64,000 nt of DNA from Trueperaceae bacterium. GTDB lineage: Bacteria; Deinococcota; Deinococci; Deinococcales; Trueperaceae. Within the stretch, counting starts at the first letter, position 1. Each line of letters starts with the position of its first letter. Position numbers and translations under genes: made by a program. The DNA lies in the NCBI GenBank assembly GCA_965215565.1, contig CBDCDZ010000004.1, positions 512,001-576,000 on the forward strand. Direction: 5' to 3'. Shown in pieces: positions 37,144-63,050 of the stretch. A model generated the notes under the pieces. The model saw only the letters and a list, made by a program, of their open reading frames with translations, searched no databases and was not told the DNA's origin.

Positions 37144-37240
37144 CATGCCTACCCTGGATGAAGACTCTCGATATTTACGCTGCGCGTGAAAAGCAGTAGG
37201 ATTTAGAGAGGTCAATTTTGTAGATGTGGTAGACAGATAC

Positions 37241-37495
37241 ATGGCGAGGCATGAAAAGCTAGTTCAGCGTCTACTCAGCAAACCAAAAGACTTCACATGG
37301 CGAGAGGTGCAAAGACTTATGAACGGTTTTGGCTATACTGAATCTTCTAAAGGAAAGACAAGTGGGTCGCGCATCCAGTTCTATAAAGAAGGTCGAAAGC
37401 CTATTGACCTCCACAAACCACATCCCTCACCCTATTTGAAAACTTATGCACTCAAAGATTTGATTAACCAGCTAAGACAAGAAGGCTTGGCATGA
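37241..37495 (+). CDS. hicA: HicA-family toxin
   Basis: PKDFTWREV...GKTSGSR...LHKPHP. Overlaps hicB (ATGA). Confidence 0.88.
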   Translation: MARHEKLVQRLLSKPKDFTWREVQRLMNGFGYTESSKGKTSGSRIQFYKEGRKPIDLHKPHPSPYLKTYALKDLINQLRQEGLA

Positions 37496-37833
37496 GCGAC
37501 TTACTTCATTATAAGGGATGCTTAGGCTCGGTAGAGTACAGCCAAGAGGACGACGTTCTACACGGCAAGTTGCAGGGTATCGGCGCTTTAGTCAACTACG
37601 AAGGCGAGGACCTGAAAACGCTAAAAGCGGCGTTTGAGGAGGCTGTAGACAGCTACTTGGAATTTTGTAAAGAGGTCGGCGAAACACCTGAGAAGCCATT
37701 TGAACAAGCTATCCAGTACCAGCCGGACCCCATCCACTATCAACGGGCCATCAACTACGCGAAAGAGCACGACCTCTCTGTTAAAGCAGTGCTTGATAGG
37801 GCGCTTGAGGAGTTTCTAAAGAAAGCCGCATAA
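37492..37833 (+). CDS. hicB: HicB-family antitoxin
   Basis: YKGCLGSVEYS...HGK...AFEEAVDSYLEFC...PEKPF plus an RHH-like tail. Confidence 0.88.
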   Translation: MSDLLHYKGCLGSVEYSQEDDVLHGKLQGIGALVNYEGEDLKTLKAAFEEAVDSYLEFCKEVGETPEKPFEQAIQYQPDPIHYQRAINYAKEHDLSVKAVLDRALEEFLKKAA

Positions 37834-43434: not shown

Positions 43435-43761
43435 TATCTTTTTGTTCAGGTACGTTTGCCCCAAAGTAGAAGAGGTGGGGTGAATTTTCTTCGGGCTCGA
43501 GTCGCCCCAAAACCCGTTCACTACACCCGCTTCGGCGTTCATCCTTTGCTGAAAAACGCACAAAGTGGGCGTCTTCACCGTTATTTTTTCACAACTTGCC
43601 CACCTCTTGTGACATTTTAGACATTCGGCGTGCACCTGCACTTGACGTGTGAAAGATGCTACCGGACAGGTACGGCGGTCCTTCGTAAGCTACTTGTCAG
43701 TGCACTTTATGAGAGTTCTTTCTACACAAAATTTAACGTGCACCTGAGAAGAGGAGGCTAC

Positions 43762-44271
43762 ATGCAACACTACCGGTCCGCCCTGGGTTTCTTTTGCGTC
43801 TGCTGCGTCATTGGGATGTCCCTGAGCGCCGCCTACGCGCAAACACCGCTCGCGGTCACCTTGGAGAGCTATCTCGTGACGGAAGTGACCCTGGAGGACG
43901 GCACCACCGAGGAGCAACTCGTCCCCACCGAGACTGCCGAGCCCGGTCAGGTCTTGGAATATCACCTCACGCTCCAGAACGAGAGCGAGACGGCGCTCTC
44001 GGAGGGCGTCGCGGCGACGGGTCCAGTGCCGGAGCGGACCCAGTACCTCGCCGAGTCCGCGACGGACGGGGCGGGATCTGACCTCACCTTTAGCGCCGAC
44101 GAGGGCGAGAGCTTTAGCGCCGCGCCTACTGTCACCGTGACGGACGAGAACGGCGACGAGCAAGAGGTGGCAGCCGAGCCGGGGCAGTATGACGCCGTGC
44201 GCTGGAAGCTGCTGAGCGGGCTCGAGCCGGGTCAGACGCGCATCTTCGTCTACCGCGTGGAGGTGCTCTAA
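43762..44271 (+). CDS. Small secreted single DUF11-like domain protein
   Basis: GGAGG RBS, signal peptide ending AYA-Q, PGQVLEYHLTLQN, and end LEPGQTRIFVYRVEVL. Confidence 0.8.
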   Translation: MQHYRSALGFFCVCCVIGMSLSAAYAQTPLAVTLESYLVTEVTLEDGTTEEQLVPTETAEPGQVLEYHLTLQNESETALSEGVAATGPVPERTQYLAESATDGAGSDLTFSADEGESFSAAPTVTVTDENGDEQEVAAEPGQYDAVRWKLLSGLEPGQTRIFVYRVEVL

Positions 44272-44361
44272 GCCTAACCTCTTTCAGTGTGTAACTTCGC
44301 TCGTCAACCCTTAACCCTCTCTAACCGCCCCGCCCTATTTTCACGCTCTCTCGGAGGAAAG

Positions 44362-47094
44362 ATGACCCTTGTACGCTCCGTTTTCGCGGTCTTGCTCGCG
44401 CTCGCTTTAGCAGTCGCCTTCGCGCAGCAAACCCCCGCCGGAACCCAGATTCAAAACCAAGCCACCGCCCAGTATGTCGATTCATCGGGCGAAACCCAGA
44501 CCACGAACTCCAACCAAGTCGTGACCATCGTCCAGCAGGTTTACGACGTGGCAATTACACCCGACAGCACCGGCACGCCCGGTGAAACTGATTTCGTGTC
44601 AGGTCAGTCCCAAGACGCCACGCCCGGTAGCACCGTGTACTTCCCGTACACGCTCACGAACGAGGGTAACGGCGCAGACAGCTTCGACTTAACGAGCGAT
44701 GTTGCCGTAGACAGCACGGGCGCTATCGCGGACACGACGCCTATTTTCTACCTTGATGAGAATAACGACGGCAAAGTGCAATCAGGTGAAGACATCGTTA
44801 CCTCTATAGATAACGTCGCTGCAGGCGAGTCCGTCAAGTTCATCATGGCGTACCAGATTCCTACGGACGTTGACACCACCGACGCAACAGCGGACACGGT
44901 GATCGCCAGCCCTATCGGAACGAGCCAGGGTGACACCGAAGCCCCTGTCGCCAGCGACAGCAACAACTACCACCAGACCAACGTTGTGCAGGGCGCAGCT
45001 CTCCGCGCGACGAAGACCGTGGACCAGGCGAACGCCGACCCCGGCGACACGCTTACCTACACTGTGACCGTCACGAATACAGGTTCGGCAGACGCAACCA
45101 ACGTCGTCATCTCCGACGAACTGCCTGGCGGCGTGACTTACGTTTCAGCGACAGCGACCCCTGCCAACACCGTTGACTTTGATGCAGGCACGTCAACCGT
45201 GAGCACGACCTTTGCAACCATCAATTCAGGTCAGGCTGTAGAGCTAGAGATTACGGCAACTGTCAATGACGACACCCTCCCCGGCGACTTAGCGAACACC
45301 GCCACTATCACTTATGACGATGATCAAGGCAACCCCAGAACTCCTGTAGATACCAACACCACGACCACGACGGTGCTACCAGAAGCAGGTGTGGCAGTCG
45401 GTCCGAACGGCGACCCGCTCGACGGGCTAGACGGCGACGACGACACCGCCATCAGCTACACCACGAGCGAGGGCTATACCATCACAGGGGCGGACAACGC
45501 CGACACCCAGGTCTTAGCCGAAGCGAACGCAGGCACCAACGTCAGCTTTATCAACACGGTTCAGAACACCGGAACCGACACCGACACCTTCAACCTCTCG
45601 ACCACGCCCACCCTTCCTGACGGCGCGTCCGTCATCCTGACCCGTCTCGACGGCACACCCCTAACCGACACCGACAACGACGGCACGGTGGACAGCGGAC
45701 CGCTCGCACCGGGTGAAAACTTCAGCTTCATCACCAGAGTTGTTTTACCGTCAAACGTTCCGGCTGAAGGCGACGCGGCTGTTAACGCTGCTGAAGTGAC
45801 CGTGACGGCGACCTCGAGCCTCAACCCAGACGTAGACGACGACACGACCAATGTCATCCAAGACATCGCCGGACCAGGCGTCGATATTGGTAACGATAAC
45901 GGCGACACAGAGGTCGATGGCGACGACACGGCAAGCGACATCGGCGTAAACCAAACCGTCGAGCCAGGCGAGAGTGCCTCGTTCCCGCTAGATATTGTTA
46001 ATACGGGCGGCAGCGACGACAGCTTCGACCTTACGGGTACCGTGGACTTCACCGACAACGAGGGCAACACCGTCACCGTCCCAGTGACCTACTACCCGGA
46101 CACGGACGGCGACGGCGTCTTAGACCCAGACGAGCTTACGGCTGGCCCGATCACCAACACGGGCACGATCGACCCAGGCGAAGAGGTCAGCGTCATCGCA
46201 GTGGTGAACGTTCCCGCAGACGCCGTGCCAACCGATGACCCTTCAACCGTCACGCTGATCGCGGACTCACCAAATTCGGGCGCGCAAGACACCTTCACGA
46301 ACAACACCGTCACCGTAGCCGAAGACGCCACCTTCACCTTCAGCCCCGACCGCAACGGCACAGCGCCAAGCCCCGGTACGGTCATCTACCAGCACACGCT
46401 CGAGAATACGGGCAACGTCAACATCACCGATATCGACTTCTCTGAGGTCTCGAGCGGTAACGACACCGGCTTCACCTACACTTATTCGTATGACGGGACG
46501 ACGTACTACGCCGTAGACGCGCTGCCCACTCTGACGGACGCAGCCGGACCGGGTGTCATCGCACCAGGCGACAACCAGTCCTTCTTCGTACAGGTCAACG
46601 TGCCTGCAGGCGTACCACAGGGCGCGGTCAACGTCGTCGAAGTTACAGCCGCAGCGACCTTCACTGCCGGAACCGCGACTCAGATCGTTACCGACACGAC
46701 TATCGTTGTCGGCGGTGAGGTCAGGGTTGAAAAAGAGTGGAGCTTAGACGGTGCCACCTTCTACCGAGGCGACGGCACCGACACCGATAATCTCCCTGTA
46801 CCCGAAGTCGCGCCAGGTGAGGACATCACCTACCGCCTCACGGTTACGAACATCGGCACGGCGGACGTTACTGAAATCGACGTCTTCGACCCCGTTCCAA
46901 CCTTCACTGACTTCGTTGAAGACTCCACCTCGGGCGGCGACGGCGTGGAATGCTCCACCGACGGCGGCACGGGCTACGGTGCGTGCCCGACGGGTGGCGA
47001 CATTGATACGGACGTCACCACACTCCGCTTCGACATCGCGACCTTAGCGCCTGGTGCGGAAGTCGTTCTCGAGTTCGACGTGCGCGTTCAGTAA
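44362..47094 (+). CDS. Secreted DUF11-repeat protein (putative major filament subunit)
   Basis: GGAGG RBS, signal AFA-QQTPAGT, repeated PGxTxTY..NTG Ig-like modules, acidic DxDxDG loops, and end FDVRVQ. Confidence 0.85.
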   Translation: MTLVRSVFAVLLALALAVAFAQQTPAGTQIQNQATAQYVDSSGETQTTNSNQVVTIVQQVYDVAITPDSTGTPGETDFVSGQSQDATPGSTVYFPYTLTNEGNGADSFDLTSDVAVDSTGAIADTTPIFYLDENNDGKVQSGEDIVTSIDNVAAGESVKFIMAYQIPTDVDTTDATADTVIASPIGTSQGDTEAPVASDSNNYHQTNVVQGAALRATKTVDQANADPGDTLTYTVTVTNTGSADATNVVISDELPGGVTYVSATATPANTVDFDAGTSTVSTTFATINSGQAVELEITATVNDDTLPGDLANTATITYDDDQGNPRTPVDTNTTTTTVLPEAGVAVGPNGDPLDGLDGDDDTAISYTTSEGYTITGADNADTQVLAEANAGTNVSFINTVQNTGTDTDTFNLSTTPTLPDGASVILTRLDGTPLTDTDNDGTVDSGPLAPGENFSFITRVVLPSNVPAEGDAAVNAAEVTVTATSSLNPDVDDDTTNVIQDIAGPGVDIGNDNGDTEVDGDDTASDIGVNQTVEPGESASFPLDIVNTGGSDDSFDLTGTVDFTDNEGNTVTVPVTYYPDTDGDGVLDPDELTAGPITNTGTIDPGEEVSVIAVVNVPADAVPTDDPSTVTLIADSPNSGAQDTFTNNTVTVAEDATFTFSPDRNGTAPSPGTVIYQHTLENTGNVNITDIDFSEVSSGNDTGFTYTYSYDGTTYYAVDALPTLTDAAGPGVIAPGDNQSFFVQVNVPAGVPQGAVNVVEVTAAATFTAGTATQIVTDTTIVVGGEVRVEKEWSLDGATFYRGDGTDTDNLPVPEVAPGEDITYRLTVTNIGTADVTEIDVFDPVPTFTDFVEDSTSGGDGVECSTDGGTGYGACPTGGDIDTDVTTLRFDIATLAPGAEVVLEFDVRVQ

Positions 47095-47106
47095 ACCCTC
47101 TCATCC

Positions 47107-47159
47107 TGTGGGAGCTTAGGCTCCCACACCCCTTCTTGGAGGGCTGCATAGGGCAGCCC
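47107..47159 (+). terminator. Two intergenic stem-loops after the major DUF11 subunit gene
   Basis: TGTGGGAGC/GCTCCCACA and GGGCTGC/GCAGCCC, without a long U-run. Confidence 0.55.
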
Positions 47160-47230
47160 CCACTATCTCACTAACTCTATTTTATGAACCTTATCAATCC
47201 CTTTACGAACCCTCTGGAAAGGCACCCCTT

Positions 47231-50050
47231 ATGACGCGACTATTCATCACTCTGAGCGTGCTGCTGAGCGGCTTGGTGCTTGCCATCACCCCGGCGGGGA
47301 CGGAGATTCGCAACCAGGCGAGCGCGGTCTTGAACGGCGAAACGTACCTCTCTAATGAGGTGAATACAGCGGTGCGTTCTCTCTGTATCCCCGAACTGAC
47401 GCCCAACGGCACACAAACCGCGCCGGGGCAGAGCGTCAGCGTGAGCGCGGGGGGGCGGGCGTACCTGCCCTATACGCTCACCAATGCGGGCAACGACCGC
47501 TTCACCTTCGACCTCTCGGTTGTGCAGGGCGCAGGCGACTGGACGCCCGGTGAGACTACGCTCTACCGCGACGCCAACCGCAACGGACGCTTGGACGCGG
47601 GCGAGACCGCCGCCCCGTCCGTCACGTTGGAGAGTGGCGCGGACGCTGCGCTCATCCTCGAGGTCGTGACGCCTGCGGGGGCGACGGGTGAACGAACCTT
47701 CTCACCCGTCGCGATTTGTGGAGGGACGAACGAAGCGGACGCGGAGAACTACGCGCTCGTACAAGTCGTCGAAGGTCCGGCGTTGCAACTCTTCAAGACG
47801 GTTGGAGGCTCCACCTTTGACCCCGGCGAGACCGTCCGCTTCGAGGTGCGCCTACTGAATAACGGCTCGCAGCCCGCCGAGAATCCCACCTTGACCGACG
47901 ACTTCGGATTCGCTGACTTAGATGGTCTCACCTTTGTGGGCGGTTCCGCAACAGCAACGCAGGGAACCGTTGAGTATTCAGACGGCGCGACCTGGACGCA
48001 GACGGAGCCGGGCACAGTGCGCAGCGTGCGGGTGCAACTCGCCTCTCTCGCCGTCGGTGGAGAGGTTATCCTCAGCTTCGAGATGCGCGTTTCGCCGGAC
48101 GCCGCGCCCGGCGAGCGGCAGAACCGCGCCGTCGCGACCGGACCCGGCGGACCCGCTGAAGTCACGGCGGACTTCACGGTAGGGGCGAGCTACCAGCACT
48201 TCTTGGGACCGGACGGCGACCCGAGAGCGCTTCCCGGCGGCGAAGGCAGCGCCGACGATTTACAGGTCAAAGACCGCTTGATTTACGGGCGCACGAGCTG
48301 TTTCGCACACACGCTAGAGAACGCGAGCACCGTTCAAGACCGCTACGAGATCGCCTTTAGCGGGCTTCCGGCGGGCGTCGCGGCGACGCTCAACACGGTT
48401 GACGGCGAGCCGCTGCCGCGCACCTTAGAACTACAAGCGGGCGAACGCCGCGACTTCAGGCTCTGCTTAACGGCGAGCGACGTCGTCCCGCCTTTCACCG
48501 TCACGCTCACCGCGACCTCACTCGCCACCGGTCAGATGAACCTCACCCGTGACCGCGTCGAAGAGGTCATAGCGGCAGGTCCCGAGCTAGACCTCGTCAA
48601 GAGCGCCGACCCCGTGGGTTCTATCGGCGAAGGCGAGGTGCTCACCTACACCCTCACGGTGACGAACAACCACGACTTCGATTTGAATGACGTGCGTATC
48701 ACTGACACCTTGGAAGGCTTCGAGCGTTCGGATGGACGAGCCGCCGAGATTCCCGCGTCCACGTTTGTCTCTGCCTCGGATGGCGGCGACTACGACGCGG
48801 AGACGCGCACCGTTTCATGGCGCGTGCTGAACCTACCCGCAGGCGAAAGCACCCGCTTCACCGTCCAGGTGCGGATGCCTGAAGACGTACCGGATGACAC
48901 CCTCTTCGTGCTGCGCAACCGTTTTAGCGTCGCGGCGCAGGAGTTGCCTGCGCCCAAAGCCTCCAACGAGGTCACGCACGCTTTCCCGCTCTTGTCGCTC
49001 ACCATCGAGAAGACGGTGGCGGAAGAGGTAGTACGCATCGGTGACACGCTGCGCTACACCGTGACGGTCTCCAACCCGAACGACGTGCCTTTAGACCTCA
49101 CAGTTGTGGACACGCCGCCCGAGCGCACCGCCTACGTAGCAGGAAGCGCGGTGGTGACGAGCGGCGCGAACGAAAAAGCGGTTGAACCCGAAGCGCGCGG
49201 CGACGAGTTGGTGTGGGACTTAACAGGCGACCCCGACTTCCGCTTGGAGCCTAGAGGCGCAGGCGGGCGCGACCGGGTGAGCATCTCTTACGCGCTCACC
49301 GTGCTACCCGGCGCGGAGGGTCCCCTGCAGAACACCGCCTACGCCCTCGGCACCTTTGGCGACGGCGACGGCGCGGTCTCGGGCGTCGTCATCGTGAGCG
49401 ACGAGGTGCAAGTGGACGTCACGTTAGACGAGCGTATCTTGAGCCAGCCCGACGCTCTCCTGAGCGGACGAGTCTACTTAGATGTCAACGAGAACTGCGT
49501 CTACGAGCACGGTCTCGACGTGCCGCTACCCGGCGCGAGGGTGCTCCTGCCGAACGGGTGGCAGACCTTGAGCGACGCAGAGGGCCGCTACACCTTCCGC
49601 GACTTAGAGCCCGGCGCGTGGTCCGTCACACTCGACGCGCGGTCCGCGCCCTTTGCGCCCGTGCCGCATCCCGAAGGCTTGGGGGAGGGCTACCAGCACC
49701 GCGTCGTCTTACAAGGTCTTACAGTGAGCGACTTTCCCTTGGTTGCACCCGCAGGCGCGATTCGCGCTTACCGGCAAACGACACTGCGCTTCGGTCCGCT
49801 CAACGTGGAAAAGCGCCTTATCGCCTTGCCGAGAGAGGACGGAACTGAAGGCGTGCGCGTGGTGCTCACGGTGACGAGCCCCGAACCCCTCCCCGAACTG
49901 GTCATCAGCGACCCCGTGCCCGGCGCGGAGCCGCGCACCTTTACCTTTGAGACTTTCGAGGGCGAAGAAACCCTGACCTACGACCTCGAGACCCCTGGGG
50001 ACGAGCCGCTACCCCTAACCGACCCCAACGCCCGCTGGAGATACCCATGA
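47231..50050 (+). CDS. Secreted DUF11-repeat protein with SdrD-B-like domain
   Basis: Signal VLA-ITPAGT, three K-[TS]...TY...N...D...N DUF11 repeats, and SGRVYLDVNEN...PLPGARV...SDAEGRYTF. Confidence 0.85.
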   Translation: MTRLFITLSVLLSGLVLAITPAGTEIRNQASAVLNGETYLSNEVNTAVRSLCIPELTPNGTQTAPGQSVSVSAGGRAYLPYTLTNAGNDRFTFDLSVVQGAGDWTPGETTLYRDANRNGRLDAGETAAPSVTLESGADAALILEVVTPAGATGERTFSPVAICGGTNEADAENYALVQVVEGPALQLFKTVGGSTFDPGETVRFEVRLLNNGSQPAENPTLTDDFGFADLDGLTFVGGSATATQGTVEYSDGATWTQTEPGTVRSVRVQLASLAVGGEVILSFEMRVSPDAAPGERQNRAVATGPGGPAEVTADFTVGASYQHFLGPDGDPRALPGGEGSADDLQVKDRLIYGRTSCFAHTLENASTVQDRYEIAFSGLPAGVAATLNTVDGEPLPRTLELQAGERRDFRLCLTASDVVPPFTVTLTATSLATGQMNLTRDRVEEVIAAGPELDLVKSADPVGSIGEGEVLTYTLTVTNNHDFDLNDVRITDTLEGFERSDGRAAEIPASTFVSASDGGDYDAETRTVSWRVLNLPAGESTRFTVQVRMPEDVPDDTLFVLRNRFSVAAQELPAPKASNEVTHAFPLLSLTIEKTVAEEVVRIGDTLRYTVTVSNPNDVPLDLTVVDTPPERTAYVAGSAVVTSGANEKAVEPEARGDELVWDLTGDPDFRLEPRGAGGRDRVSISYALTVLPGAEGPLQNTAYALGTFGDGDGAVSGVVIVSDEVQVDVTLDERILSQPDALLSGRVYLDVNENCVYEHGLDVPLPGARVLLPNGWQTLSDAEGRYTFRDLEPGAWSVTLDARSAPFAPVPHPEGLGEGYQHRVVLQGLTVSDFPLVAPAGAIRAYRQTTLRFGPLNVEKRLIALPREDGTEGVRVVLTVTSPEPLPELVISDPVPGAEPRTFTFETFEGEETLTYDLETPGDEPLPLTDPNARWRYP

Positions 50051-53000
50051 AGGTCTTATTTATCATTCTGACGCTACTCTCGCCCTTCGCTTTTGCTAAC
50101 GACGACGACACGGTCAAAGGTATCGTCCCCGGCGACGCTCTGGGCTGGGAGATCGAAGAGGTCGTGATGACGCTGTCGCTCGGTCAGGACAGCCCGGTGA
50201 AGCTCGAGATTTATTCCCCCGGCTTCGATCCGGACGACTACCGCGCCGCTTTGGACGGGCGCACCGAGCTGGGCGACGAGAATTACGGCGATCTTCCCCT
50301 AGCAGGTGAATTCGTATTAGAGAGCGGCGACACCCTCGCCCAGGGGCGCTACGAAGCCCAGCCGCACGAGTGGGAGACCCTTTATGAGGGCACCTTAGAG
50401 AAGGGCGCGTACACCCTGCGCAGCCGCTTTACCGGAAGGGGCAAAAACGCCTTTGTGGTGCGCGTGACGACGCCCGACCCGAGCATCAGCTCGCTCCGCT
50501 TCGCCGAAGGCACCGAACTTTTCGACGTGCGCTCTACCGAGTGGGTTCAAGCCTTTGAGGCCAAACTGCCCCGCGCGGGCACGCCCGCGCGTTACGCGCT
50601 CTACGACGGCGACGGCGCAAGCGAGCTAGAAGCGAAAGTCGTCATGGCGGACGGCAGCGAGCGCACCCTGCCCGTCTCGGAAGATTTGGAGTGGCAGGTC
50701 TGGGAATTCACTGAAGCGGGCACGTACACCGTCTACCTCCGTCAACCCGAAAGCGCGTATCAGTATTCCAATACCGTCGCGACGAAGACGCTCTACCCCG
50801 AGCCCGTTGTCGTAGACGTCGTGGACACGGCGGGCACCGCGCTCGGTATTCCCGCCCGCATCACGGGCTACAGCGAACGCACCGTGACGCTGGACGTGCC
50901 GAGCGAGTACCGACTCGTCGAGATTCAAACCGGCGGCGCGAGAGGTGACGGAACGCGAGTCAGCTTCGGCTTTGAAGGCGGACAGGTGCGTTACGTGCTG
51001 GAACAAAGTGCCGAAGCGGAGCCGGAGCCCGTAACGCCGCAGCCTGAGCCGACGCAGCCCGAAGCGCAAGACGCCACCGTGACCTTGACCAGGGACCTCG
51101 ACTTAAAAGAGGTCTTGCCCGGTGAAGTCGTGACCGTTTCTTTGACGGTCAGCCACGACAGCGACTCGCCCGTGACCTACACCTTGGAGGACACGCCGCC
51201 CGAGTGGTTGGAGCCGCTCGAGCCCACCACGTTCGAAGGCACCTTGGCAGCGAATGGTTCCGTTACGCACACCTACGGGGCGTCGGTGCGCTTCGGCGCG
51301 GAGGCGACGGGCGAGTTTACGGCGCGGCTGACCTCGTCTATCGGCGACGCGACTGCCGTAGACACCCTTGCGCGCCACCTGCTTCTCGTCGAAAAGAACG
51401 CCGCGTCTGAGACGGTGTTAGAGGGTCAAGCCACCTCGTTCACCGTGCGCGTGACGAACCCCTTGGGGCGCACCGTCTCCTTCGAGCTGCGCGAGTCGCC
51501 GCAGAGAGGCTTAGGCCTGGAAGGCGAGCCCGTCATCGACGTGACGCTGGGGGCGAACGAGAGCGAGTCCTTCGAGTTCACGGCGACGCCGGGGCGCACC
51601 GGCTCGCTCGATAACCAAGCGTCCGTCTTCATCAACCGGACGCCCGCCGGTTTCCCCGCTGGCGCGAGCTTAAACGTCAAGCCTATCCTCGTGCCCGAGC
51701 GCACCTCCTTAGTGACGCTGCCCTTTAACGTCGAAGCGGAAGGAAGAGTCGCCGAAGTCGAGGAGACAGAGGGCGGCACGCTCCTCATCCGCCACCGCGT
51801 CCCTTCGGATGCAACCTATGAGGTGGGCTCCTCGAGGCTGAACGGAAACCCTACCCCCGAGCCCTTAACGCAAACAGTGGAAGAAAGCGGCGAAGAGGTC
51901 ACCTACCTCTACTGGCAACTCCCCTACCTGACCGAGGGAACCCTGAGCTACGCCCTCGCCCACCAGGAGAGCTTGGACGCCTTGGCGGAGCCCGCTTTAA
52001 CTTTCAAATTCGGCAAGCGCGAGCTTTTCTTAGCGGGCGAGGTGCCCTTTGGAGAGGTGCGGGGTGCGCGAGAGGTCGTCCCTGCTAGGCGCAACGGGCT
52101 CATCCGCGAGCCCTTTCCCGGTACGGTTTACCGCACGACGGACGCGGCGAAAGTCGTTTTGGAGGGTCCCATCACCGAAGAGGTCACGCTCCTCTTAAAC
52201 GGCGTGAGCGTGAATAGCGACGCGCTAGGTAAGCGCGTGATTGACGAACAGAGCGGCGTGCAGCGCCTCGAGTACTACGGCTTGCCCTTAGAGGTGGGCA
52301 GCACCCTCATCGAAGCGACGATGGGCGGCGCACGCGACCAAGTCGAGGTCTTCCGCGCGGGCAACCCGACCTCTTTGGAGATCACCCCGACGATGTTGGA
52401 GGCGGACGGCGTCACCCCCGCCCAGTTCGAGATTCGCGCCCTAGATGAGTTCGGCGTGACGAACGGCTTCGGCGCGGTGAGCGTGCAGACCGATCTGGAA
52501 CCTCTAGACGACGACGCTTTCCCCGCCGAATCCGGCTACCAAGTTCTCTTAGAAGATGGCGTCGCGACCGTTCGCCTAGAACCCGTTCTAACGCCGCAGC
52601 AAACCAACTTACAGGTCCGCTTCAACGACTTGGACACGCGAGCGTCCTTTTACCTGGGCGGTACGGACGAACCCCTTTACCTCTATCAGGGCAGCGTGAG
52701 CGTGAAGCTGAGCCAGGGCGAGTTGAGCACTACGGGCGTGGCGAGAGGGTACGTCGAGACGCCTCTCGGGAACGGCACGCTGCAAGGCGCACTCGACACG
52801 AACGGCGGCGTCGCTGAGCAGGATGACCCTTCAGGGCGCTTTCCCATCACGGGCAGCGGCAACGCCGCGCAGCCCGCGCTACGCTCCGATGACCTCGTCG
52901 CGGTGCGTTATGGCGACGACACCTTTAGCGTCGGCTACTACGCGGACAGCTTGGGCGTGCCGGGTTTAGAAGGTGTAGCCAGTGGTACGGCGTTACAGGG

Positions 53001-54707
53001 CGAAGTGCGTACCGACTTTGTAGGCGGCGAACTCGTCGGCAACGCCTACGCGAGCCTCCTACCCACCGATCAACTGAGCGAGACGATTGTTCCCGACGGC
53101 ACGCGGCGCTACACCTTGAGCGCCGCGCCCATCAGACCCGGCAGCGAGAGCGTGACGGTGCGAACGGGCGCAGAGGCGCGCGTGTTGGAGCGCTTGGAAG
53201 ACTACACCTTAAATGATGTGACGGGCACCCTTACGCTCGCTCAACCTCTTTTCCCGACTGACGTAAGCGGCCTAGAAACCCGCCTCGAGGTCTCCTACGC
53301 ACCTGCTGAGAGCCCCCGTGACACCCTTTCGGCAGGGGGCGGCGTTCAATATTCGTTCGGTGATTGGGTGCTGGGTGCGGGCATCGCTAGCGTGGGCGGT
53401 GTCCAGTTAGGCGCGTACGCGGACTATGTAGGGGCGGGCTCGAGCTTTAGCCTCACCTACCGCTACGACGAGGCGTTGCGCTCGCAGATCGGTCTTTCGG
53501 GCACCCTGACGCAAGGCTCTTTCAACGCGAGCGCGAACATCAGCTACACGGACGCGCTACAGGGACAAGCCCGCGCCGCTTACAGCTTTAGCGAAGGGCA
53601 ACGCGCCGCCCTCGAGCACAGCGCCCGCAGCACCCGCAACCAGACAAACGCCTTGTACGAACTCGATTTGGGCGACTTCACCTTAGGTTTAGGGGCGGGC
53701 TACTTGTGGGAAGCGCAGACCTTTAGCGCCGTCGCCCGCGCTGGGTATAGGACAGGCAACGCCGACTTCCGCCTCACCCACACGCAACCCTTTGGCGATA
53801 CTGCGCCGATCAGCGACTTCCGCGTGAACTACCAGATCGGCGAGAGTTTGGCGGCGGACTTAGGACTCGTCTACACCTGGGGGGGCGAACTCGTCGGGAA
53901 CGTCGCTTTAGTCCAATCTTTAGGGCGCGGCAACCTCTCGGTTTCGTATCAACTCCCCGGCGCAGACGGACGCGGCAACCGCGCCCGCTTCGGGATTGAG
54001 ACGCCCCTACCCCTTAGCGACGCCTGGAGCTTGGATCTCTCCGCGAACATAGATCAAGGGTTTAGTGACGGCACCACCTTGGCGAGCGCGGGTGCGGGCG
54101 TGCGCTACAGCAAGGGACTTCGTGGCTACTGCCTCCTCCGAAGTGAGCTACGACAGCGCGCAGGACTCTCCCTTCAAACTCACCTTTAGGGGGGGCGCAA
54201 CCGGACAGTTGGACCATCAGCAGACCTTATCCTTCGACGCGACGTATAGGCTCATCCCCGAAGCCGAGGGGGAGTTCACGGCGGCGTACGCACTTAGAAG
54301 CAGCTACCTCACCCTCTTGACCTATCACCGCTTAGAGACGGGCGGCGACGAAGGCAGCGAGTTAGAGGGCGAACTCGCCCCGACGCTGCACCCAAACAAA
54401 GGGTGGCAACTGCGCCCCGGCTTCGCCTACCGCATCCCCTTGTGGAACGACCGGAAGAGCACCTTTTTAGCCTCGTTGGGCGGACATTACTACCTTACGG
54501 ACTACGCGGGCGTGGGCGGCTCGGTCTATCACGAGTGGCAGCCTGCGACGAACAGCAGCGCCACCGCCTTTGGCGTCGAGGGCTCGGTGCGCGTGATTGA
54601 CGAGCTGTGGTTGGCGCTCGGGTACACCTTTGAGGGCTTTGACGGGCTCAGTGAAGATACGAAGAGCGGGCTACTTACGCTTTGAACTCTTAGGCGGAGG
54701 TCAGTGA
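50047..54707 (+). CDS. Large DUF11-containing protein with C-terminal outer-membrane beta-barrel (frameshifted at ~54115 and ~54671)
   Basis: Signal AFA-N. Amphipathic G/aromatic beta-strands continue from ORF 50047-54189 into ORF 54065-54685 and end YLRFELLGGGQ-TGA (54705-54707) in a third frame. Confidence 0.75.
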
Positions 54708-54789
54708 TGCGACCCGTAAACGCCGCTAACACCCGCATCCGCAAGAACGGCGACACCTCTTGTCTCACATAAACGAAAGACCTATTCCC

Positions 54790-57700
54790 ATGACTCCAGA
54801 CCTCTTTTACACGCTTCACCCGGTATTTTAGGTGCGCTCATCCTCTTCGCCTCTCTGCGCCTACCGTCCACGCCGAGGGCAGTAAAGACCTCATCCGCAA
54901 CGGCGGCAACCGCGCCTTTTTAGAGCACCGCACAGGCACGAGCGGCTCCTATCAGACGGCAGGCATTCCGCGCGTCACGGTCATCAGAGTGTATGCTAAC
55001 GCGGGCGAAGTGGTGGCGCTAGGCTCCTCCGCCAACGGTGTCGGGAACGGTACGATCCGCGTGCGTGGGCCGAGCGGGTTCACACCTTTTGCGTGCCCAG
55101 CCCCGGGCACAAACAATACGGGTAAAATTCTTAACCGAGCGCAAGAGGTTGCGGGAGCCAACTATAACGGCGTTAATCCCGGCGGCTATACGCCCTGCAC
55201 CTTTCGTCGCGCTTGAGTACGGGTATCTATGAGGTGGACTTCATCCAACCCGCGACGGCGAACAGCACGAACCCCACAACGCTCGCTGTGAGCGCTAACT
55301 GGCCCGCGCAGGCCAGCGCGGACAACTGGGTCACCGCTTGGGACGTCACAGTCTTCGATGGCAACGTAGCGCAGAGCGGGCGCGTCTTCGCCCGCTACTA
55401 CGCGCTCAACCTCGGGAGCGCCAACGCGAGGGTCAACTTAGACGTCATCGTACAGACTATCGACGGCTACCGCTACGAACTCGAGCAAGACATCGAGCCC
55501 TTCGGCTTCATCTTCTTCGCCAACCGCAAGGGCTTTAGAGATGGGGAGGGCAACGCCATCTACCGCTCGATTCAGCTCAACGACGACGACACGCTTCAGC
55601 CGGGTCAGACCTTTAACGCGCCCGACCAACCCGACGACATCGACAACAACGAAGTGACGCACAAAATCTTTTTGAACGAGCCGGATGGCAGTATGCCAGC
55701 TACCGCCGCCACACCGAGCGGCACCGACACCTGGCTCTACCGCCCCGACGCCAAAGCGCCGCCCATTCCGCAGGACTTCGCCTTTACAGGCGTGGACGGA
55801 ACCCAGGACCAAGCGGGCACGGGCTTGGGGGGTACGTTCTCCTTCGTCAACCCCTTAGACGGCACCGACGACGCCCCTGCGCCCAACGCCTACAACATCA
55901 CGCTCGAGTTCTCGAGCGGCGCAACCAAGCGCGTGCTCGCAGGCACCGCCGACCCCGACGTCACCACCGAAGTCTTCTGGGATGGTCAAGACGGCGACGG
56001 CAACGACGTACCCGCAGGCAGCGGTGACTTCACCGCCACGGTCAGACTCTTCGCGGGTGAGGTTCACTTCCCCTTCCTAGACGTGGAGGACGCGCCCACC
56101 GGGATAAGCATCACGCGCCTCAACACACCTGCAGGCAGCGCCACCACTGGCATCGCCGACCCTGGACGCATCTACTACGATGACAGCATCTTTACGAATG
56201 GGCAGAAAGAGCTTGACGGTATCATCACACCCCCTGCCGCGCACACCTTTACGGGCGACTTCGGCAACCATAGAGGCATTGACACCTGGGTCTACTACCC
56301 GACCTCTGAGCCCGAACAAGCGAGCATCGTCATCCGCGAGGCGGACCTCTCGGTTGCGATGACGGACAACCCCGACCCTATCTTGGCAGGTGGTCCTACC
56401 TCCTACACCTTTACGGTGAGCAACCTTTCAGATGGCTCAGCGGGAACGGTGGACGCCGTGGACGCCGCCGTCACAGACGCCTTTCCAGCCGAGTTGACGA
56501 ACGTACAGTGGCGCTGTGAAATCACGGCGGAGGGCACGTTCGCGAATGAACCCCTAGCGGCGAGTAGCTGCGCGATCAATTCAGGTGCGGGCGACATCAG
56601 CACGACGGTGAACTTGAAGCGCGGCGCAACCGCGACCTTCACCGTCACGGCGACGGTAGCTCAAAACGCGAGCGGCATACTGACGAACACGGCTACCGTA
56701 GGACGAGGAACCGACGCCAGTGACCCTGATGCGAGCAACAACGAAGCGAGCGAAACGACGACGATAGACGCGAACCCAGGCGTCGCGGGAAGCGTCTTCG
56801 ACGACGCAAACGGCGACGGCATATTCGACGCGAGCGAGAGCGGTTTAGCGGGTGTAACGGTGGTGCTCTATGACTCAAATGCAAATAGCTGCCGCGCCGC
56901 TCAAACGAACGCAGCGGGCGACTACGTCTTTACGAACGTCGCGGACGGCTCCTATCAGCTTATCGAAGCGGCGTCCGAAACTGTACCGACCCCAGCGGCA
57001 TGTCCACCCGCCGAAGAGGACCCAGCCGGATACGGCTCGACGACAGCGAACACGTTAAATGTGAATGTGGCGGGCTCGAGCCTCTTCGCGCAGAACTTCG
57101 GCGATACGACTGGTTTTGACTACGGCGACGCCCCCGCGACCTATACCGAGGCTGAAATTGTCGCAAGTGACAACATCTACTTGGGCTCGACGCCACCCGA
57201 TATTGACGCGGGCAACTGGCACGACGGTGTCGATGACAGCCAAAACGCCACCGACGACGACACGAACGACACGCCCTCTGCGTTTACAGCGGGCAGCGGC
57301 GAGGAGGACAGCGTCATCTTCGGTCCTTTGGATTACACGATGGCGGGCGAAACCTTTAGCCAGGACGTGAGCGTCACGAATGACAGCGCCTCTCCCGCTT
57401 ACGTCCGCGGCTGGATAGACTTCGACCGTAACGGCACCTTCGATGCCGACGAGGTCTCAGACGAGGTGACGGTGGCGGCGAACGCAGGCACGACCACAGC
57501 TAACGTGACCTTCAACATTCCCGCGAATAGCGCTAATACCTACGACGGTATCAACCCCGGTCCGAGCTTCGCGCGGGTCATCGTGTCGGACACGCCCAAC
57601 ATTCCCCTCACGGGTCAGGGCGCAGGCGAGGTGGAAGATCTGCGGGTCAACATCGCCGACGTGGACTTCTGCACCTTCGCACCCGGCGAAACCTTTTCAG

Positions 57701-60700
57701 GGTTTGACTTTACCAACGTTACAGGTCTCACAAACGACGCGAGCGGCGCGAGAGACGCGGTTGCCCTGTTCGAAAACGCCGCCGTTGCACCCGACGGAAC
57801 GCCCTTAGACGTGCGGATGACGGTCAACATGCCCTCGGGCAGAATCAATTCGTTCGGTAACGGCACCCTCAACCAAAACGTCGAAGATACCGGAGCCTAT
57901 TTGAGCATCACAGGAGACAGTGACCAGGACTACGCGGCGGAGGTGCGCCTCGAGTTCCTCCTCGCCAACACCTCAGTCCCTTACGCCGTGTCCGGTCAGT
58001 TCTCCACGAATGACATCGACGGAAAGAGCAACCGCACCGAGGCGCTCCTCTTGAATATTGAGAGCTTCGACGGTTTCGCGCTCGGCGACCCGACCACGAT
58101 TCGAGCGCCCTACGTCGAGGGTGACTATACGGCGTTCACAGGCACGGGGGACCGCGACAGCGAGCCAGACAGCGCAGTTGTCTACACCTTTTCGAACCAG
58201 ACCCGCGTGGACCTGATCGTGCGAGGTACCGACATTGTAGGCGAAACAACCGCAGGTTTCGGCATCAATGGACGCCTCGCCAGCCAGCAACTCGGCTCAC
58301 CCGTCTGCAGTTCGATACCGCCGCCCGCCGATTACGGTGACGCACCCGCAAGTTACGGCGACGCGGGACACGCCGTGTCCCAAATGCCCGAGCTTTACCT
58401 AGGCGCGGTAGCCCCCGACGAGGAAAGCCAGCCTCAAAACGCAGCCAATGGCGGCGCAGACGGAACAGGCGACGACGCCAACGGGACGGACGACGAGGAC
58501 GCCTTTGACACGCTACCCCCTCTCGCTACGGACAGCAGCAGCTACACCCTAGAGGTGCCTTTGACAAATCCGAGCAGCGCCGCGACGCTTTACGGCTGGG
58601 TTGACTTCGACGGTGACGGGCGCTTCTCAGCGAGCGAGGCGGCAACCGCTAACGTGGCTGCCGGGGCGAGCACGGCGACGCTCAGTTGGAACAGCGCCAA
58701 CGGCAACGCACCCGCAAACCTCAGTGAGGGTACGACCTTTGCCCGCTTGCGCCTGACGACGGACAGCCTCACGGACGAGGCGAGCACCACCAGCCAGGAC
58801 GAACGCGCCAGCGTCGCCGCGACTGACGGTGAGGGCGAGGACTACCCCGTCGAGGTGCTCGGGCGCGTCTACACCTGCCCTACTGCTAGGGCTGACCTCT
58901 GGTTCGCCAATGACGAATCGGGCAGCGTGAGCGACGCCGAGTTCAACGACGCCCTCGACTTCCTCTACCAAATCTCTGACGAATTTATCTACGACGATGT
59001 AACGGGTGTAAAGGCCGGCGTGACCGCTTGGATTAACCTTGAGAATTCGCTCGAGGTTGTTATGCCCATCACGGAAACTTTCGGTGATCCTGGCGACTCA
59101 GGGTTGATCGGCTCAGGCGGAGTCACTACGGACGGTGACGGACGGGGGCTGCGTGAGCTTTACAGCGCTAGACAAAACCCCTCGGGTCGGGGTACGCGCT
59201 TGGATTACGCCACAAACTACCTCGCTGACCTCATCATCGCCGGCAATGGTCGCAGGGCGGACACCCCACAAGTCGCCGTTATCCTGACAGATGCTAATGA
59301 GGGTCAGTTGACCGTGGCAGATCAAGGGGGCGGCAGCGCCTGGATCGATGAAGCTAACCGCTTGAGAAATGCGGGTCCTGACGGCACGAACATCCTCGTG
59401 ATCGTTACTCAGGAAGCCGCAGCCGCCTATAGCGACCCGGACAGCGAAGCTAAGTCCGTCGTTGACGCCGTTGCAGGCGCGAACGGACTCGTTCTTGTTG
59501 TACCGACCTACGTTGAGGCTGCAGAAGCCACCAATGGGTACGTCCAGCAAACAGTAAACGCGATCTGTGAACTCACCACGCGCGAGCCCACCCCGGAGAT
59601 CGACCTCGAGCTGACCCAAGCTGCGCCAAGCGTAGCCACGCAAGGTGAAAGCGTCACCTTCACCCTGACGTTAGAAAATAAAGGGCCAGACAGCGCCACC
59701 GGGATAGAGGTCACGGACCTCTTACCGAGCGGTCTCACATTCCAGTCAGCCTCCTCTACGAACTACAACGCGAGCACGGGTGTATGGAACGTCGGCGCGT
59801 TGGCGAGCGGTGACAGCGTGGTGCTCGAGATTACAGCCACCGTCGATGAGGGCGTACCTGCGCAGATCATCAACAGCGCCGAAGTCACTGCCGCTGAGCA
59901 GACCGACACGGATTCAACGCCGGACAACCGCGCCGATGCGCCGGATGAGGACGACACAGTCTCCGCTACCCTAGATGTCTACAGTCTCTCCCCTAACGAG
60001 GGCAACATCGTTATCAATGAAGTGCTTTTCGACCAGAGCAGGAGCGGCAACGTGAGCGCCGCAAATAACGACGAGTTCATCGAACTCTATAACGCAGGGG
60101 ACATAACCGTTGACCTCTCCGGCTGGGAACTCATCGACGCTAACCTCATCGCTGGCGACTTCGACGGTCCGAATGGGAATATCAATGGCGCAGAGCCCTA
60201 TACCTTCCCCGCTACCCAGCTTGCGCCGGGCGAATACGCGATTATTTGGATCGGTCAGAGCGCCGCGAGCCGTGACGCGCCGACCGCTGCCTTTCAGACC
60301 TGGTTAGGTAGAAACATAAGGCTTAAAAACAGCGGTGACGACGTGTGGCTCTACGACAACGAAGGGCGCATTGTAGACTACATCGCGTACGGCAACGATA
60401 CGGCGGTGAACACGCCACCCCCCGCCTCGCTAGGACTGTGGGACCCTCAGTACAACGCCAACCTCGACAGCAGCGGCAATAGCAACGGTACGAACGGCAC
60501 CGTTAAGGGTCAGTCCATCAGCCTGACGCCCAATGGCGCAGATAGCAACACGAGCGCCTGCTGGGAGCCTACCGCGAGCGGTGAGGCGGACGGACGCTGC
60601 GCGAGTTATCTACCTACTATCGACAGCGACGCAAGGGAGGATAGCGGCACACAGCTCGTCACCAGCGTTGCTCAAAACAACAACGCCTTCATCTCGGGTA

Positions 60701-61788
60701 CGCTCTTCTACGACGACGGCTTAGAAAATGGAGACGCGAACAATGCTTTTCGGGAGGGCAGTGAACGGGGTGCATTCGGCATCGTCGTTACAGTCACCGA
60801 CGGCGCGGACACCGTGAGCACAACAACGGACGGCGCGGGCAACTACAGTCTTATCGTTCCTGGTTCGTTCAGCAACAAACAACTCACGCTCTCTCATTCA
60901 AGGCAGCCCACGACGGGATACAACGACGGAACAGATGAGGTACTAGCAGCAGTTTACGCAGATGCAGACGCCGCTAGCGTCACCTTCTCCTTCACGGGCA
61001 GCAGCGTCACCTACAACTTCGGCGTCGCGCGTCCCAGCACTCTGCGCCCCGATCAAAACGGACAGGTAGGTCCCGGCAGCGCGATCAGCTACACCCACCT
61101 CTTCACGCCGGGCACGTTGGGTGAGGTCAGCTTGAGCGTTTCAGGAACGTACAGCTATCAGGTCTTCAGAGATGTGGATTGCGACGGCATCGTCCAGCCG
61201 GACGAGCAGGCGGATGTGATCGCCGCAGGGTTTGACGTTGACAATACCTGGCCCCGAACAGAGGCCGGCGCTCTAGCTCCTTGCGCCCTGGAACTGCGTG
61301 TATTCGTCCCCGAAGGTGAAGCGAGCGGACGCATCGACTTGGCGACGCTGAGCGCCAACCTCGCCTACGCCGATAATTCGGCTGTGGTAGACAGCGTCAG
61401 CGTGACGGATGTGACGACAGTAACGACGGGTGGACAGCTCGAGCTAACCAAGCGCGTCGCCAACGTCACGCAAGGCGCGGACTTTGGCACCGTCGGCGAG
61501 GGTGAGCCGGGGGATGTGCTCGAGTACTGCATCAGCTACCGCAACTTAGGCACTGAAACCTTGACGCAAACCCTCTTTAGCGACCCCGTCCCCTTCTTCA
61601 CAACATTTGTAACTGGAGCTTACAACAGTCAAGACATCTTGTGGACCCACAACGGCGCGGAAAAGCCCCTGAGCGCCACCACAAACGACGACGAAGGTGA
61701 ACTGAGTAGCGGCGTCGTGCAGGTTGATATTGGCGAGGTGGCAGCGGGTGAGGCAGGCGAGGTCTGCTACAGAGTACGCATTAGATAG
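54790..61788 (+). CDS. Giant multidomain adhesin (DUF11, SdrD-B, GEVED x2, vWA, lamin-tail); 5' end frameshifted
   Basis: ORF 55213-61788 has GEVED/GEGEDY, DESGS MIDAS and IVINEV...EFIELYN...DLSGW motifs. The N-terminal part VHA-EGSKDLIRNGGNRAFLE...VYANAGE lies in another frame (54794-55216) and the signal peptide in a third. Confidence 0.8.
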
Positions 61789-62168: not shown

Positions 62169-63050
62169 TCAGATCAATTCATATCCCAAAGCCTTCAGTT
62201 CTTTAGTTATGCTATACGCGACCTCTTCGATGCTGTTACTGAACTTCTTATAAATCATCCCACTAATATCACTAGGAAGCTCAACTTCTCCGGTATACAA
62301 GCAGCAGGTACGGGAACGACCTAGTTTACCGACAAAATAGCCAAATTCAAAAATTACATTCGGCCTAGCACGTAAGCTTTTGGCACGCTCACCATCTGCC
62401 TTCTCCTCTTCTTTAGCAAGATAAGCAACCTCATCTGGGGTCAAAAGTATGAAGGCGTAGCCGACATCACTATGTTTTTCAAACTTCTCTATAATTGTTA
62501 AACCTTCATCTGCTTGACGATGCAATACGATAGGTTCTAAGCCAATCTCAGATAGAAATATTTCAAGATTTGTTTTAGCAACTTCATCGTGACCGTGTAC
62601 TAAAAATACGCGCTTCGATAGACTTACTGATTCATCTTCTGAAAGGTTTTCGCGTGGCTGAGCTACCACTGATGGAATTAACTCTAGTCTACCTAAGATG
62701 GATTTGAGGCTACGAATTTGCCTATCAATGTCTCTATGTAAATCCTTAATCTGCCATCCAAGCGAAGATGAGCGCCCAGGTACAGCGACTCTAACATACC
62801 CAGGACTGTACTCTTTTGAAACTTCATCGGTTGTGAATATGCGTTTAAGCATTTCTTCGTTGTAGTCATCCCACAAACGGTATTCTTCTTTAGCGCTCTC
62901 ATAGGAATCTTGAGTATTGACCAAAGCGCTTTTTAGCTCAGAACCTTTGACGATGCGGTCTTCAATTCTCGACGCTGCCTCTTCCCTTGAAATTTTAAGG
63001 CTAGCAGATTCGTTCATTTGCCTAGTTTCTTGTTTACGAGTATTGGGCAT
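62169..63050 (-). CDS. TIR-like (CAP12/PF10137-type) nucleotide-binding protein with N-terminal helical domain
   Basis: RVFLVHGHD, GLEPIVL, TIIEKFE, AFILLTPD, RARPNVIFEFGYF and ELPSDISG motifs. AT-rich. Start may be ATG 63017. Confidence 0.88.
   Translation of the reverse strand: MPNTRKQETRQMNESASLKISREEAASRIEDRIVKGSELKSALVNTQDSYESAKEEYRLWDDYNEEMLKRIFTTDEVSKEYSPGYVRVAVPGRSSSLGWQIKDLHRDIDRQIRSLKSILGRLELIPSVVAQPRENLSEDESVSLSKRVFLVHGHDEVAKTNLEIFLSEIGLEPIVLHRQADEGLTIIEKFEKHSDVGYAFILLTPDEVAYLAKEEEKADGERAKSLRARPNVIFEFGYFVGKLGRSRTCCLYTGEVELPSDISGMIYKKFSNSIEEVAYSITKELKALGYELI

Follow-up and report, generated by a model that had tools for sequence, protein, structure and literature searches.

Gene 2 of a five-gene cluster in this Trueperaceae genome holds one whole CLIPPER (DUF11) domain and one further copy of that domain, whose two parts lie at opposite ends of the protein. 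Copies of the gene 2 product probably plug together head to tail, with a predicted Lys790–Asn31 bond locking the resulting surface chain. The parts of this reading differ in strength. Complementation of the C-terminal acceptor by the N-terminal hairpin in trans is very likely; once such complementation is granted, the covalent bond is likely in its turn; and a long fibre is somewhat favoured over a short chain. The cluster occupies 43762–61788 on the + strand of the window (the whole 64,000-nucleotide stretch of DNA that was analysed), and the finding concerns the mature part of gene 2, which begins at 44425 with the first residue past the predicted signal peptide. The features are as follows.

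43762..44271, + strand: gene 1, with its ATG at 43762 and a length of 169 aa, a stand-alone acceptor fold, candidate chaperone or cap
44365 (ATG) to 47094 (stop), + strand: gene 2, 909 aa, likely major (shaft) subunit
44431..44544, + strand: gene 2 donor hairpin, residues 23–60 (corresponding to CLIPPER strands F and G); codon of N31 at 44455–44457; motif IQNQA at 44449
44992..45378, + strand: whole internal CLIPPER/DUF11 domain of gene 2, about residues 210–338; K217 at 45013, D251 at 45115, N311 at 45295; motifs ATKTV at 45007, SDELP at 45112, LANTA at 45289
46711..47091, + strand: gene 2 acceptor, residues 783–909, a CLIPPER domain without its last two strands; K790 at 46732–46734, D842 at 46888–46890; motifs VRVEKEW at 46720, FDPVP at 46885
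47231..50050, + strand: gene 3, 939 aa, candidate base or anchor subunit, with an N-terminal donor (N28 at 47312; motif IRNQA at 47306), three DUF11 domains and an SdrD_B-like domain
50047..54685, + strand: gene 4, predicted to encode a large beta-barrel protein of the outer membrane, with frame breaks near 54116 and 54673
54791..61788, + strand: gene 5, candidate adhesin of the tip, with a C-terminal acceptor whose K is at 61450 and D at 61582; motifs LELTKRV at 61438, SDPVP at 61579; open frame only from 55213

The whole and the split CLIPPER domain of gene 2

The protein runs from a signal peptide through the donor hairpin, four plain Ig-like domains and one whole CLIPPER domain to the C-terminal acceptor. 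The internal domain matches PF01345 at 94.6 bits against a cut-off of 24.6 (residues 213–323). Its model superposes on 9IFR with a Z of 13.9 and an rmsd of 2.7 over 121 aligned residues, which places it in the CLIPPER/CnaA fold, and on SpaD (4HSS) with a Z of 13.8. Through the family profile, the internal Lys, Asp and Asn align to SpaD residues spaced 37/112. This spacing equals that of the solved SpaD triad, K187/D224/N299 (PMC12617251, Table 1), and the three residues are thus taken to occupy isopeptide triad positions. The name CLIPPER replaced DUF11 once a crystal structure had revealed an intramolecular K715–N806 bond with D748 nearby (PMC12617251). As described there, 9IFR likewise has a CnaA-like fold with a first-strand Lys, a catalytic Asp and a penultimate-strand Asn, and its triad spacings are 33/58, those of the internal gene 2 domain being 34/60. 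In 9IFR, however, a single chain holds the whole triad, which serves to stabilise a stalk domain, whereas the second copy in gene 2 is divided between the ends; in the passages of that paper covered here, neither "donor strand" nor "split" occurs.

The division is exact. By hhalign, the acceptor profile covers positions 15–93 of the 132-residue internal domain and ends there (E 4e-18), while the donor profile covers positions 97–131, with N31 falling on N311 (E 2e-6). Since the two profiles are exactly complementary on the internal domain, they represent one domain cut in two. When 13 windows of the family were compared with the donor, a match was found in just 2, those with the internal F–G hairpin, and in none of the other 11. 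The Pfam DUF11 match in the acceptor spans model positions 11–84 of 114 and reaches the stop codon. The acceptor does not qualify as a complete domain, for the Asn strand is missing and the triad is not within one chain, which makes it a split member of the family. It carries no strand-F Asn of its own, and its last strand is the C-terminus of gene 2, with no sorting signal behind it. In shuffles of gene 2, the donor pattern occurred twice with P 0.0002 and the strand-C pattern twice with P 0.001; these values are rough, as the patterns were drawn from the same sequences. No solved relative of the whole gene 2 protein turned up when the PDB was searched by sequence, and Foldseek with the whole gene 2 model returned generic Ig chains only.

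The initial annotation had proposed that the acceptors of genes 2 and 5 keep a strand-A Lys and a D-P-V-P Asp, and that the matching Asn sits on the donor segment (IQNQA, IRNQA), as in the complete internal repeat. All of these motifs were located in the sequence. The donor segment does carry the Asn as proposed; as a refinement, it is a two-strand hairpin of about residues 23–60 and not a single strand. A second SDPVP, absent from that annotation, occurs in gene 3 at 49907.

Conservation, natural fusions and the predicted complex

The split triad is strongly conserved. Among 120 homologues from a whole-protein search, at about 30% identity, the residue is kept 116 times for N31, 118 times for K790 and 119 times for D842; gaps account for all the other cases, and substitutions are zero. 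The internal K217 (109/120) and N311 (110/120) are more variable. A profile search gave a further 76 full-length proteins of 800–1000 aa, in which N31, K790 and D842 are each found in 75. One of these proteins, P0197, has lost Lys and Asp together, and another, P0221, has lost the Asn. In both full-length proteins without the Lys, L045 and P0197, the Asp is gone as well. In the merged set of 181 sequences, two of the nine Lys-majority columns exceed 0.55, namely K790 and K217. The strand-A Lys was scored by multiple alignment, because local profile alignments missed it across a variable insertion. At the level of loci, drawn from 80 genome loci and the window, 68 have a complete gene 2; Lys is retained in 67, Asp in 66 (one with Glu) and Asn in 68, the last count being partly circular since the donor profile was used in the selection. 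Covariation by MI-APC (181 sequences, Neff about 111) gave no donor–acceptor signal, and its top pairs track ancestry.

Two other Asn residues were considered as partners of the Lys and rejected. The equivalent of N829 is N238, which is invariant in the internal domain and is also present in gene 1; the equivalent of N50 is N331, likewise invariant in the internal domain. Both residues therefore look structural.

Natural fusions were found in 3 of 182 proteins over 1500 aa, where an acceptor gives way to the next donor within 2–4 residues and no signal peptide intervenes. P0121 has four such junctions, P0122 has one, and P0363 has one, in which gene 2 runs into gene 3 and then the barrel. Lys, Asp or Glu, and Asn are retained at five of the six junctions; in P0363 both Lys and Asn are replaced. 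The Pfam DUF11 match spans one P0121 junction, to model position 98. In P0121, a single chain comprises three complete and two partial units. The fused units share 44–50% identity with one another and 34–36% with gene 2, and the mutual divergence argues against duplicates of assembly. All three fusions are known as protein sequences, P0121 and P0122 being singleton metagenome gene calls. At the level of sequence, they support an order in which acceptor n is followed by donor n+1, as well as a link from gene 2 to gene 3. Ordinary DUF11 repeat adhesins dominated the search for longer relatives, which gained one fusion, P0363.

In a predicted complex, the acceptor (residues 781–909) and the hairpin (residues 21–61), each supplied as an alignment, scored 0.80, and the best of three controls scored 0.01. 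The mark for this score is attained by 116 of 157 solved complexes and by 2 of 215 mismatched pairs. Contacts agree between runs to at least 98%, and the partner pLDDT is 84–85. Donor residues 33–38 pair antiparallel with acceptor residues 837–842, in the register of the intact domain. K790 is predicted to contact residues 33, 49 and 52, and D842 residues 33 and 34. Both thus touch A33, two residues from N31, which itself lies within the predicted interface. Read as contacts and not as distances, they fit the triad, since A33 and N31 are on the same face of the strand; the pair K790–N31 is missing among the 25 best. A passing score speaks for fit and not for bond formation, because the halves of one domain may pass through their likeness to solved CnaA folds. 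In the single-chain AlphaFold2 model of full-length gene 2, the hairpin has a pLDDT of 85–93.

The other genes and the proposed assembly

The Pfam scan placed DUF11 (PF01345) above its cut-off in genes 2, 3 and 5, with a weak match in gene 1, and neither Pfam nor NCBIfam assigned a family to gene 4. Gene 1 is the acceptor fold alone (hhalign probability 99.3); it is present in 56 of the 68 loci, and is a separate gene in 55 of the 66 with room upstream. At the positions of the reactive residues, Lys occurs in 1 of the 56 proteins, Asp in 6 and both in 0, the residues being mostly small or hydrophobic; the Lys-equivalent column was placed by the L-x-L-x pattern, as the hhalign alignment of that strand is not firm. 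With the same fold and both residues in none of 56, gene 1 indicates that the acceptor fold does not require Lys and Asp. That it serves as a chaperone stands at an even chance.

The gene 3 donor was scored in 63 of the 68 loci, and 53 reach at least 8 bits, of which 49 have the Asn (two have Ser and two Ala). Among the 10 under 8 bits, five have the Asn, and L032 is a clear donor with Ser. Together with the single gene 2 homologue, out of 76, that has lost its Asn, these five replacements (four among the 53 gene 3 donors, and L032) mean that a part of the links do without this residue. In Deinococcota, genes 3 and 4 are separate, and in most other loci they are fused. In an intact gene 4 from another locus (L004), the C-terminal 679 residues are modelled as a barrel of at least 31 consecutive strands with a pLDDT of 86. 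The best structural matches of the barrel have TM scores of 0.17–0.24, to LptD, MtrB and FimD (0.22 for FimD), and an atlas search with it found unnamed clusters only.

Gene 5 contains DUF11, GEVED, LTD and SdrD_B domains and a weak VWA match. Across the loci, 23 genes end in an acceptor without being the gene 2 of their locus; two of them are truncated gene 2 fragments, and the other 21 form the tip set, all with both Lys and Asp. Where a tip gene has any donor match within the first 200 residues, its score stays below 1 bit, compared with 36.9 bits or more for gene 2. In the window, no donor motif was seen in the frames upstream of the break in gene 5, whose true start lies before the break. 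The five genes would together make up the parts of a polar chain: a tip, a shaft, a base, a pore and an unreactive acceptor.

Assembly may be pictured as follows. Subunits would be secreted through Sec, and gene 1 would shield their free donor hairpins in the periplasm, reversibly, as its lack of Lys and Asp suggests. At the barrel, each new hairpin would complete the previous acceptor, beginning with that of the adhesin. The burial of K790, D842 and N31 would then allow Asp842 to catalyse the Lys790–Asn31 bond, in a reaction that releases ammonia (17 Da), known from solved CnaA-type domains. The chain would run from the tip adhesin (gene 5, acceptor only) through n copies of gene 2 to the donor of gene 3, which would terminate it and tie it to the membrane at the gene 4 barrel. 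Complementarity, the alignment of the internal triad to a solved one, conservation, predicted docking and fusions all support the triad split across subunits that the initial annotation put forward, in which the bond itself is a prediction. The description of the polymer as enzyme-free in that annotation fits the bond, but gene 1 and the gene 4 barrel are likely used in the assembly.

Head-to-tail complementation could alternatively be non-covalent, in the manner of chaperone-usher pili, with Lys, Asp and Asn retained for packing or as a relic. The Asn-less gene 3 donors (4/53) and the missing Lys and Asp of L045 and P0197 are in its favour, as is the existence of some DUF11 domains without the bond, as noted in the part of Costa et al. 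drawn on here (PMC12617251). We nevertheless regard it as improbable, since the buried Lys and Asp are near 100% across phyla, more tightly kept than in the internal domain, while gene 1 has mostly small or hydrophobic residues at the same places, and a strand-F Asn is absent from the acceptor itself. Docking of the hairpin into the acceptor of its own chain, or in a closed dimer, would instead give a cyclised monomer with an intramolecular bond. The high pLDDT of the hairpin in the AlphaFold2 model may reflect such docking in cis. Five domains separate the halves, however, the fusions link acceptor n to donor n+1, and the acceptor-only tip genes and the gene 3 donor make sense only in trans; this arrangement is very unlikely.

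A short stalk, formed of the adhesin, one or a few copies of gene 2 and the anchor, differs from the locked chain preferred here in length alone. The subunits are large, with six domains, and the fusions P0121 (three whole and two partial units hard-wired) and P0363 (one gene 2 unit joined to gene 3 and the barrel) indicate that short chains appear to be enough in some organisms. On the other hand, both ends of gene 2 are free in 68 of 81 loci, which allows unlimited repetition, and the dedicated barrel and the separate gene 1 suggest a controlled assembly of many steps; a short stalk is rather unlikely. The family might also function as proposed while the copy in this organism decays and forms no fibre, which is less likely than not. 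Compared with the congener G002, whose five genes all stay open, the window shows indels that break the frame near 54116, 54673 and 55202–55213; the start of gene 5 is broken as well. With genes 4 and 5 frameshifted in this assembly, the organism may not build the structure. Genes 1–3 are nevertheless intact, and gene 2 is 91% identical to that of G002. One contig of a public run, which may stem from the source sample, matches 43752–49220 (genes 1 and 2 and most of gene 3) without a difference. The breaks are indels of 1–2 bases clustered within 1.1 kb of a four-contig assembly and resemble read errors; the public contigs across these sites come from diverged strains.

Distribution, known systems and significance

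The nearest named relatives are from Trueperaceae and other Deinococcota. A relative is encoded in 388 of 649 stretches scanned, and record titles name Deinococcota, Pseudomonadota, Verrucomicrobia, Acidobacteria, Krumholzibacteria/Latescibacteria, Desulfuromonadales and others. Among kin genomes, 21 of 41 have any match, many of them to DUF11 repeats alone, and the distribution is patchy. In Thermus thermophilus HB8, the five genes are intact on pTT27 (TTH_RS10905–10925; TTH_RS10910 is the counterpart of gene 2), with the same pattern of Lys, Asp and Asn and with a gene 1 that lacks them. Searches with Pfam and NCBIfam, limited to genes 1–5, found no sortase family and neither a TasA-family subunit nor a SipW peptidase. 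Fimbrial usher and PapD-type chaperone families had no match in the five genes with the same libraries, or in the intact barrel of a relative. No description of the operon or of a split DUF11 domain was found in the literature within reach of the search, beyond which lay subscription papers and supplements. A search for cross-linked fibres in work on Cupriavidus or by CryoSeek found nothing relevant in the papers it covered, most subscription papers being outside it. The structures in papers on tat-fimbriae and on Litorilinea DUF11 were considered and set aside, as those described in the parts seen are different ones.

Covalently polymerised pili are, in the textbook case, Gram-positive and made by sortases. 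The present five-gene cluster is unlike them, having neither a sortase nor an LPXTG sorting signal on gene 2. Reactive pairs of a peptide and a catcher, such as SpyTag, SnoopTag and DogTag, are man-made by cutting isopeptide domains of the CnaB type, and DogTag is an Asn-bearing hairpin. The halves of gene 2 would be a natural pair of the CnaA type, serving polymerisation.

The closest working parallel is BsaA of Clostridium perfringens, for which an "exchange and lock" by an autocatalytic intermolecular Lys–Asn bond is supported by models and the mutants N35A, K74A and E56A (bioRxiv 10.1101/2024.11.04.621531). As presented in the portion of that preprint used here, the Asn is on the N-terminal donor and the Lys and catalytic acid are on the receiving subunit, as in gene 2. 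BsaA is, however, a Gram-positive, TasA-family subunit of a single domain, with one donor strand, a Glu catalyst and a SipW peptidase, whereas the gene 2 system has the CLIPPER fold, a two-strand hairpin, an Asp, a six-domain subunit, an outer-membrane barrel and a dead-acceptor protein; gene 2 is no member of the BsaA/TasA group. Chaperone-usher pili, in the part of the account drawn on, share an acceptor-only tip, shaft subunits with an N-terminal donor, a large barrel and a small periplasmic helper (PMC13721041), and in gene 2, too, an N-terminal donor completes a C-terminally truncated Ig fold. Their links are non-covalent, their usher has 24 strands and their chaperone donates a strand (PMC13721041); the present system differs in its barrel model of at least 31 strands, in a helper that resembles a strand acceptor and in two donor strands instead of one. 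In the archaeal thread Saci_0406, subunits also join head to tail through donor strands, and an isopeptide link has been proposed, although the subunit is different and, in the section consulted, the link is between Asn57 and the N-terminal amine of subunit n+2 and is not a Lys–Asn bond with an Asp catalyst (PMC9715654).

The principle of the lock thus has a precedent in BsaA and a looser one in the archaeal thread, while for outer-membrane bacteria no description of the proposed surface fibre was found in the literature within reach. The pathway as a whole may be a new class of pilus, distinct and widespread in outer-membrane bacteria, with two-strand complementation between multi-domain subunits, autocatalytic Lys–Asn locks without sortase, an "inverse" strand-accepting chaperone that would hold the subunits back, and their threading through a barrel larger than any usher; we hold this tentatively, at slightly less than an even chance.

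If the proposed locking is true, a sortase-free covalent fibre would exist across many outer-membrane phyla. It would give a function to many operons annotated as "DUF11 / hypothetical" and to an uncharacterised giant barrel. The hairpin and acceptor would also constitute a natural thermostable Catcher/Tag pair, and the operon of T. thermophilus HB8 could supply a heat-stable CnaA-type pair for protein ligation.

The C-terminal end domain of gene 3

The gene 3 product, the candidate base or anchor of the predicted fibre, ends in a compact domain.

49790-50050, + strand: CLIPPER-like compact end domain at the C-terminus of gene 3

Both the strand-A Lys and the D-x-x-P acid are present in this domain in all 14 real split-type proteins, those in which gene 3 is separate from gene 4, one spurious ORF having been excluded from the count. 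The acid is D in 13 and E in the remaining one, and a conserved TDP..W motif closes the domain. The domain may be cross-linked in cis by a Lys-Asp bond; alternatively, it may serve as an additional acceptor.

Frame breaks and other genes of the window

Genes 4 and 5 are broken by several indels, all lying inside 1.1 kb, which may represent either real decay or assembly error. Two further features lie elsewhere in the window, the TIR gene being located between the five-gene operon and gyrB. The ORF pair may be of the HicA/HicB toxin-antitoxin type, which it resembles.

54116, 54673, about 54790-54860 and 55202-55213: indels of 1-2 bases in genes 4 and 5
62169-63050, - strand: TIR effector domain protein of the CAP12/Pycsar type, stand-alone (PF10137, E 6e-35)
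37226-37833, + strand: two small neighbouring ORFs following groEL

Variants of the shaft and the tip

The pre-polymerised multi-unit proteins P0121 and P0122 retain a free N-terminal donor and terminate in a weak dockerin-like repeat, which suggests an anchor or cargo link of another kind. P0205 of Cetobacterium ceti (3376 aa), with the donor at its N-terminus and the acceptor at its C-terminus, is by its sequence a giant shaft variant of Fusobacteriota.

The shaft acceptors of gene 2 in the related operon L045 and of the related protein P0197 have lost both Lys and Asp, with the donor Asn kept. The tip acceptor of L045 is intact, and therefore the tip link alone would be covalent in this operon. 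In loci L001, L003, L004, L007, L011 and L014 the tip genes share the position downstream of gene 4 but are wholly unlike one another in their N-terminal parts, a pattern as for exchangeable adhesins.
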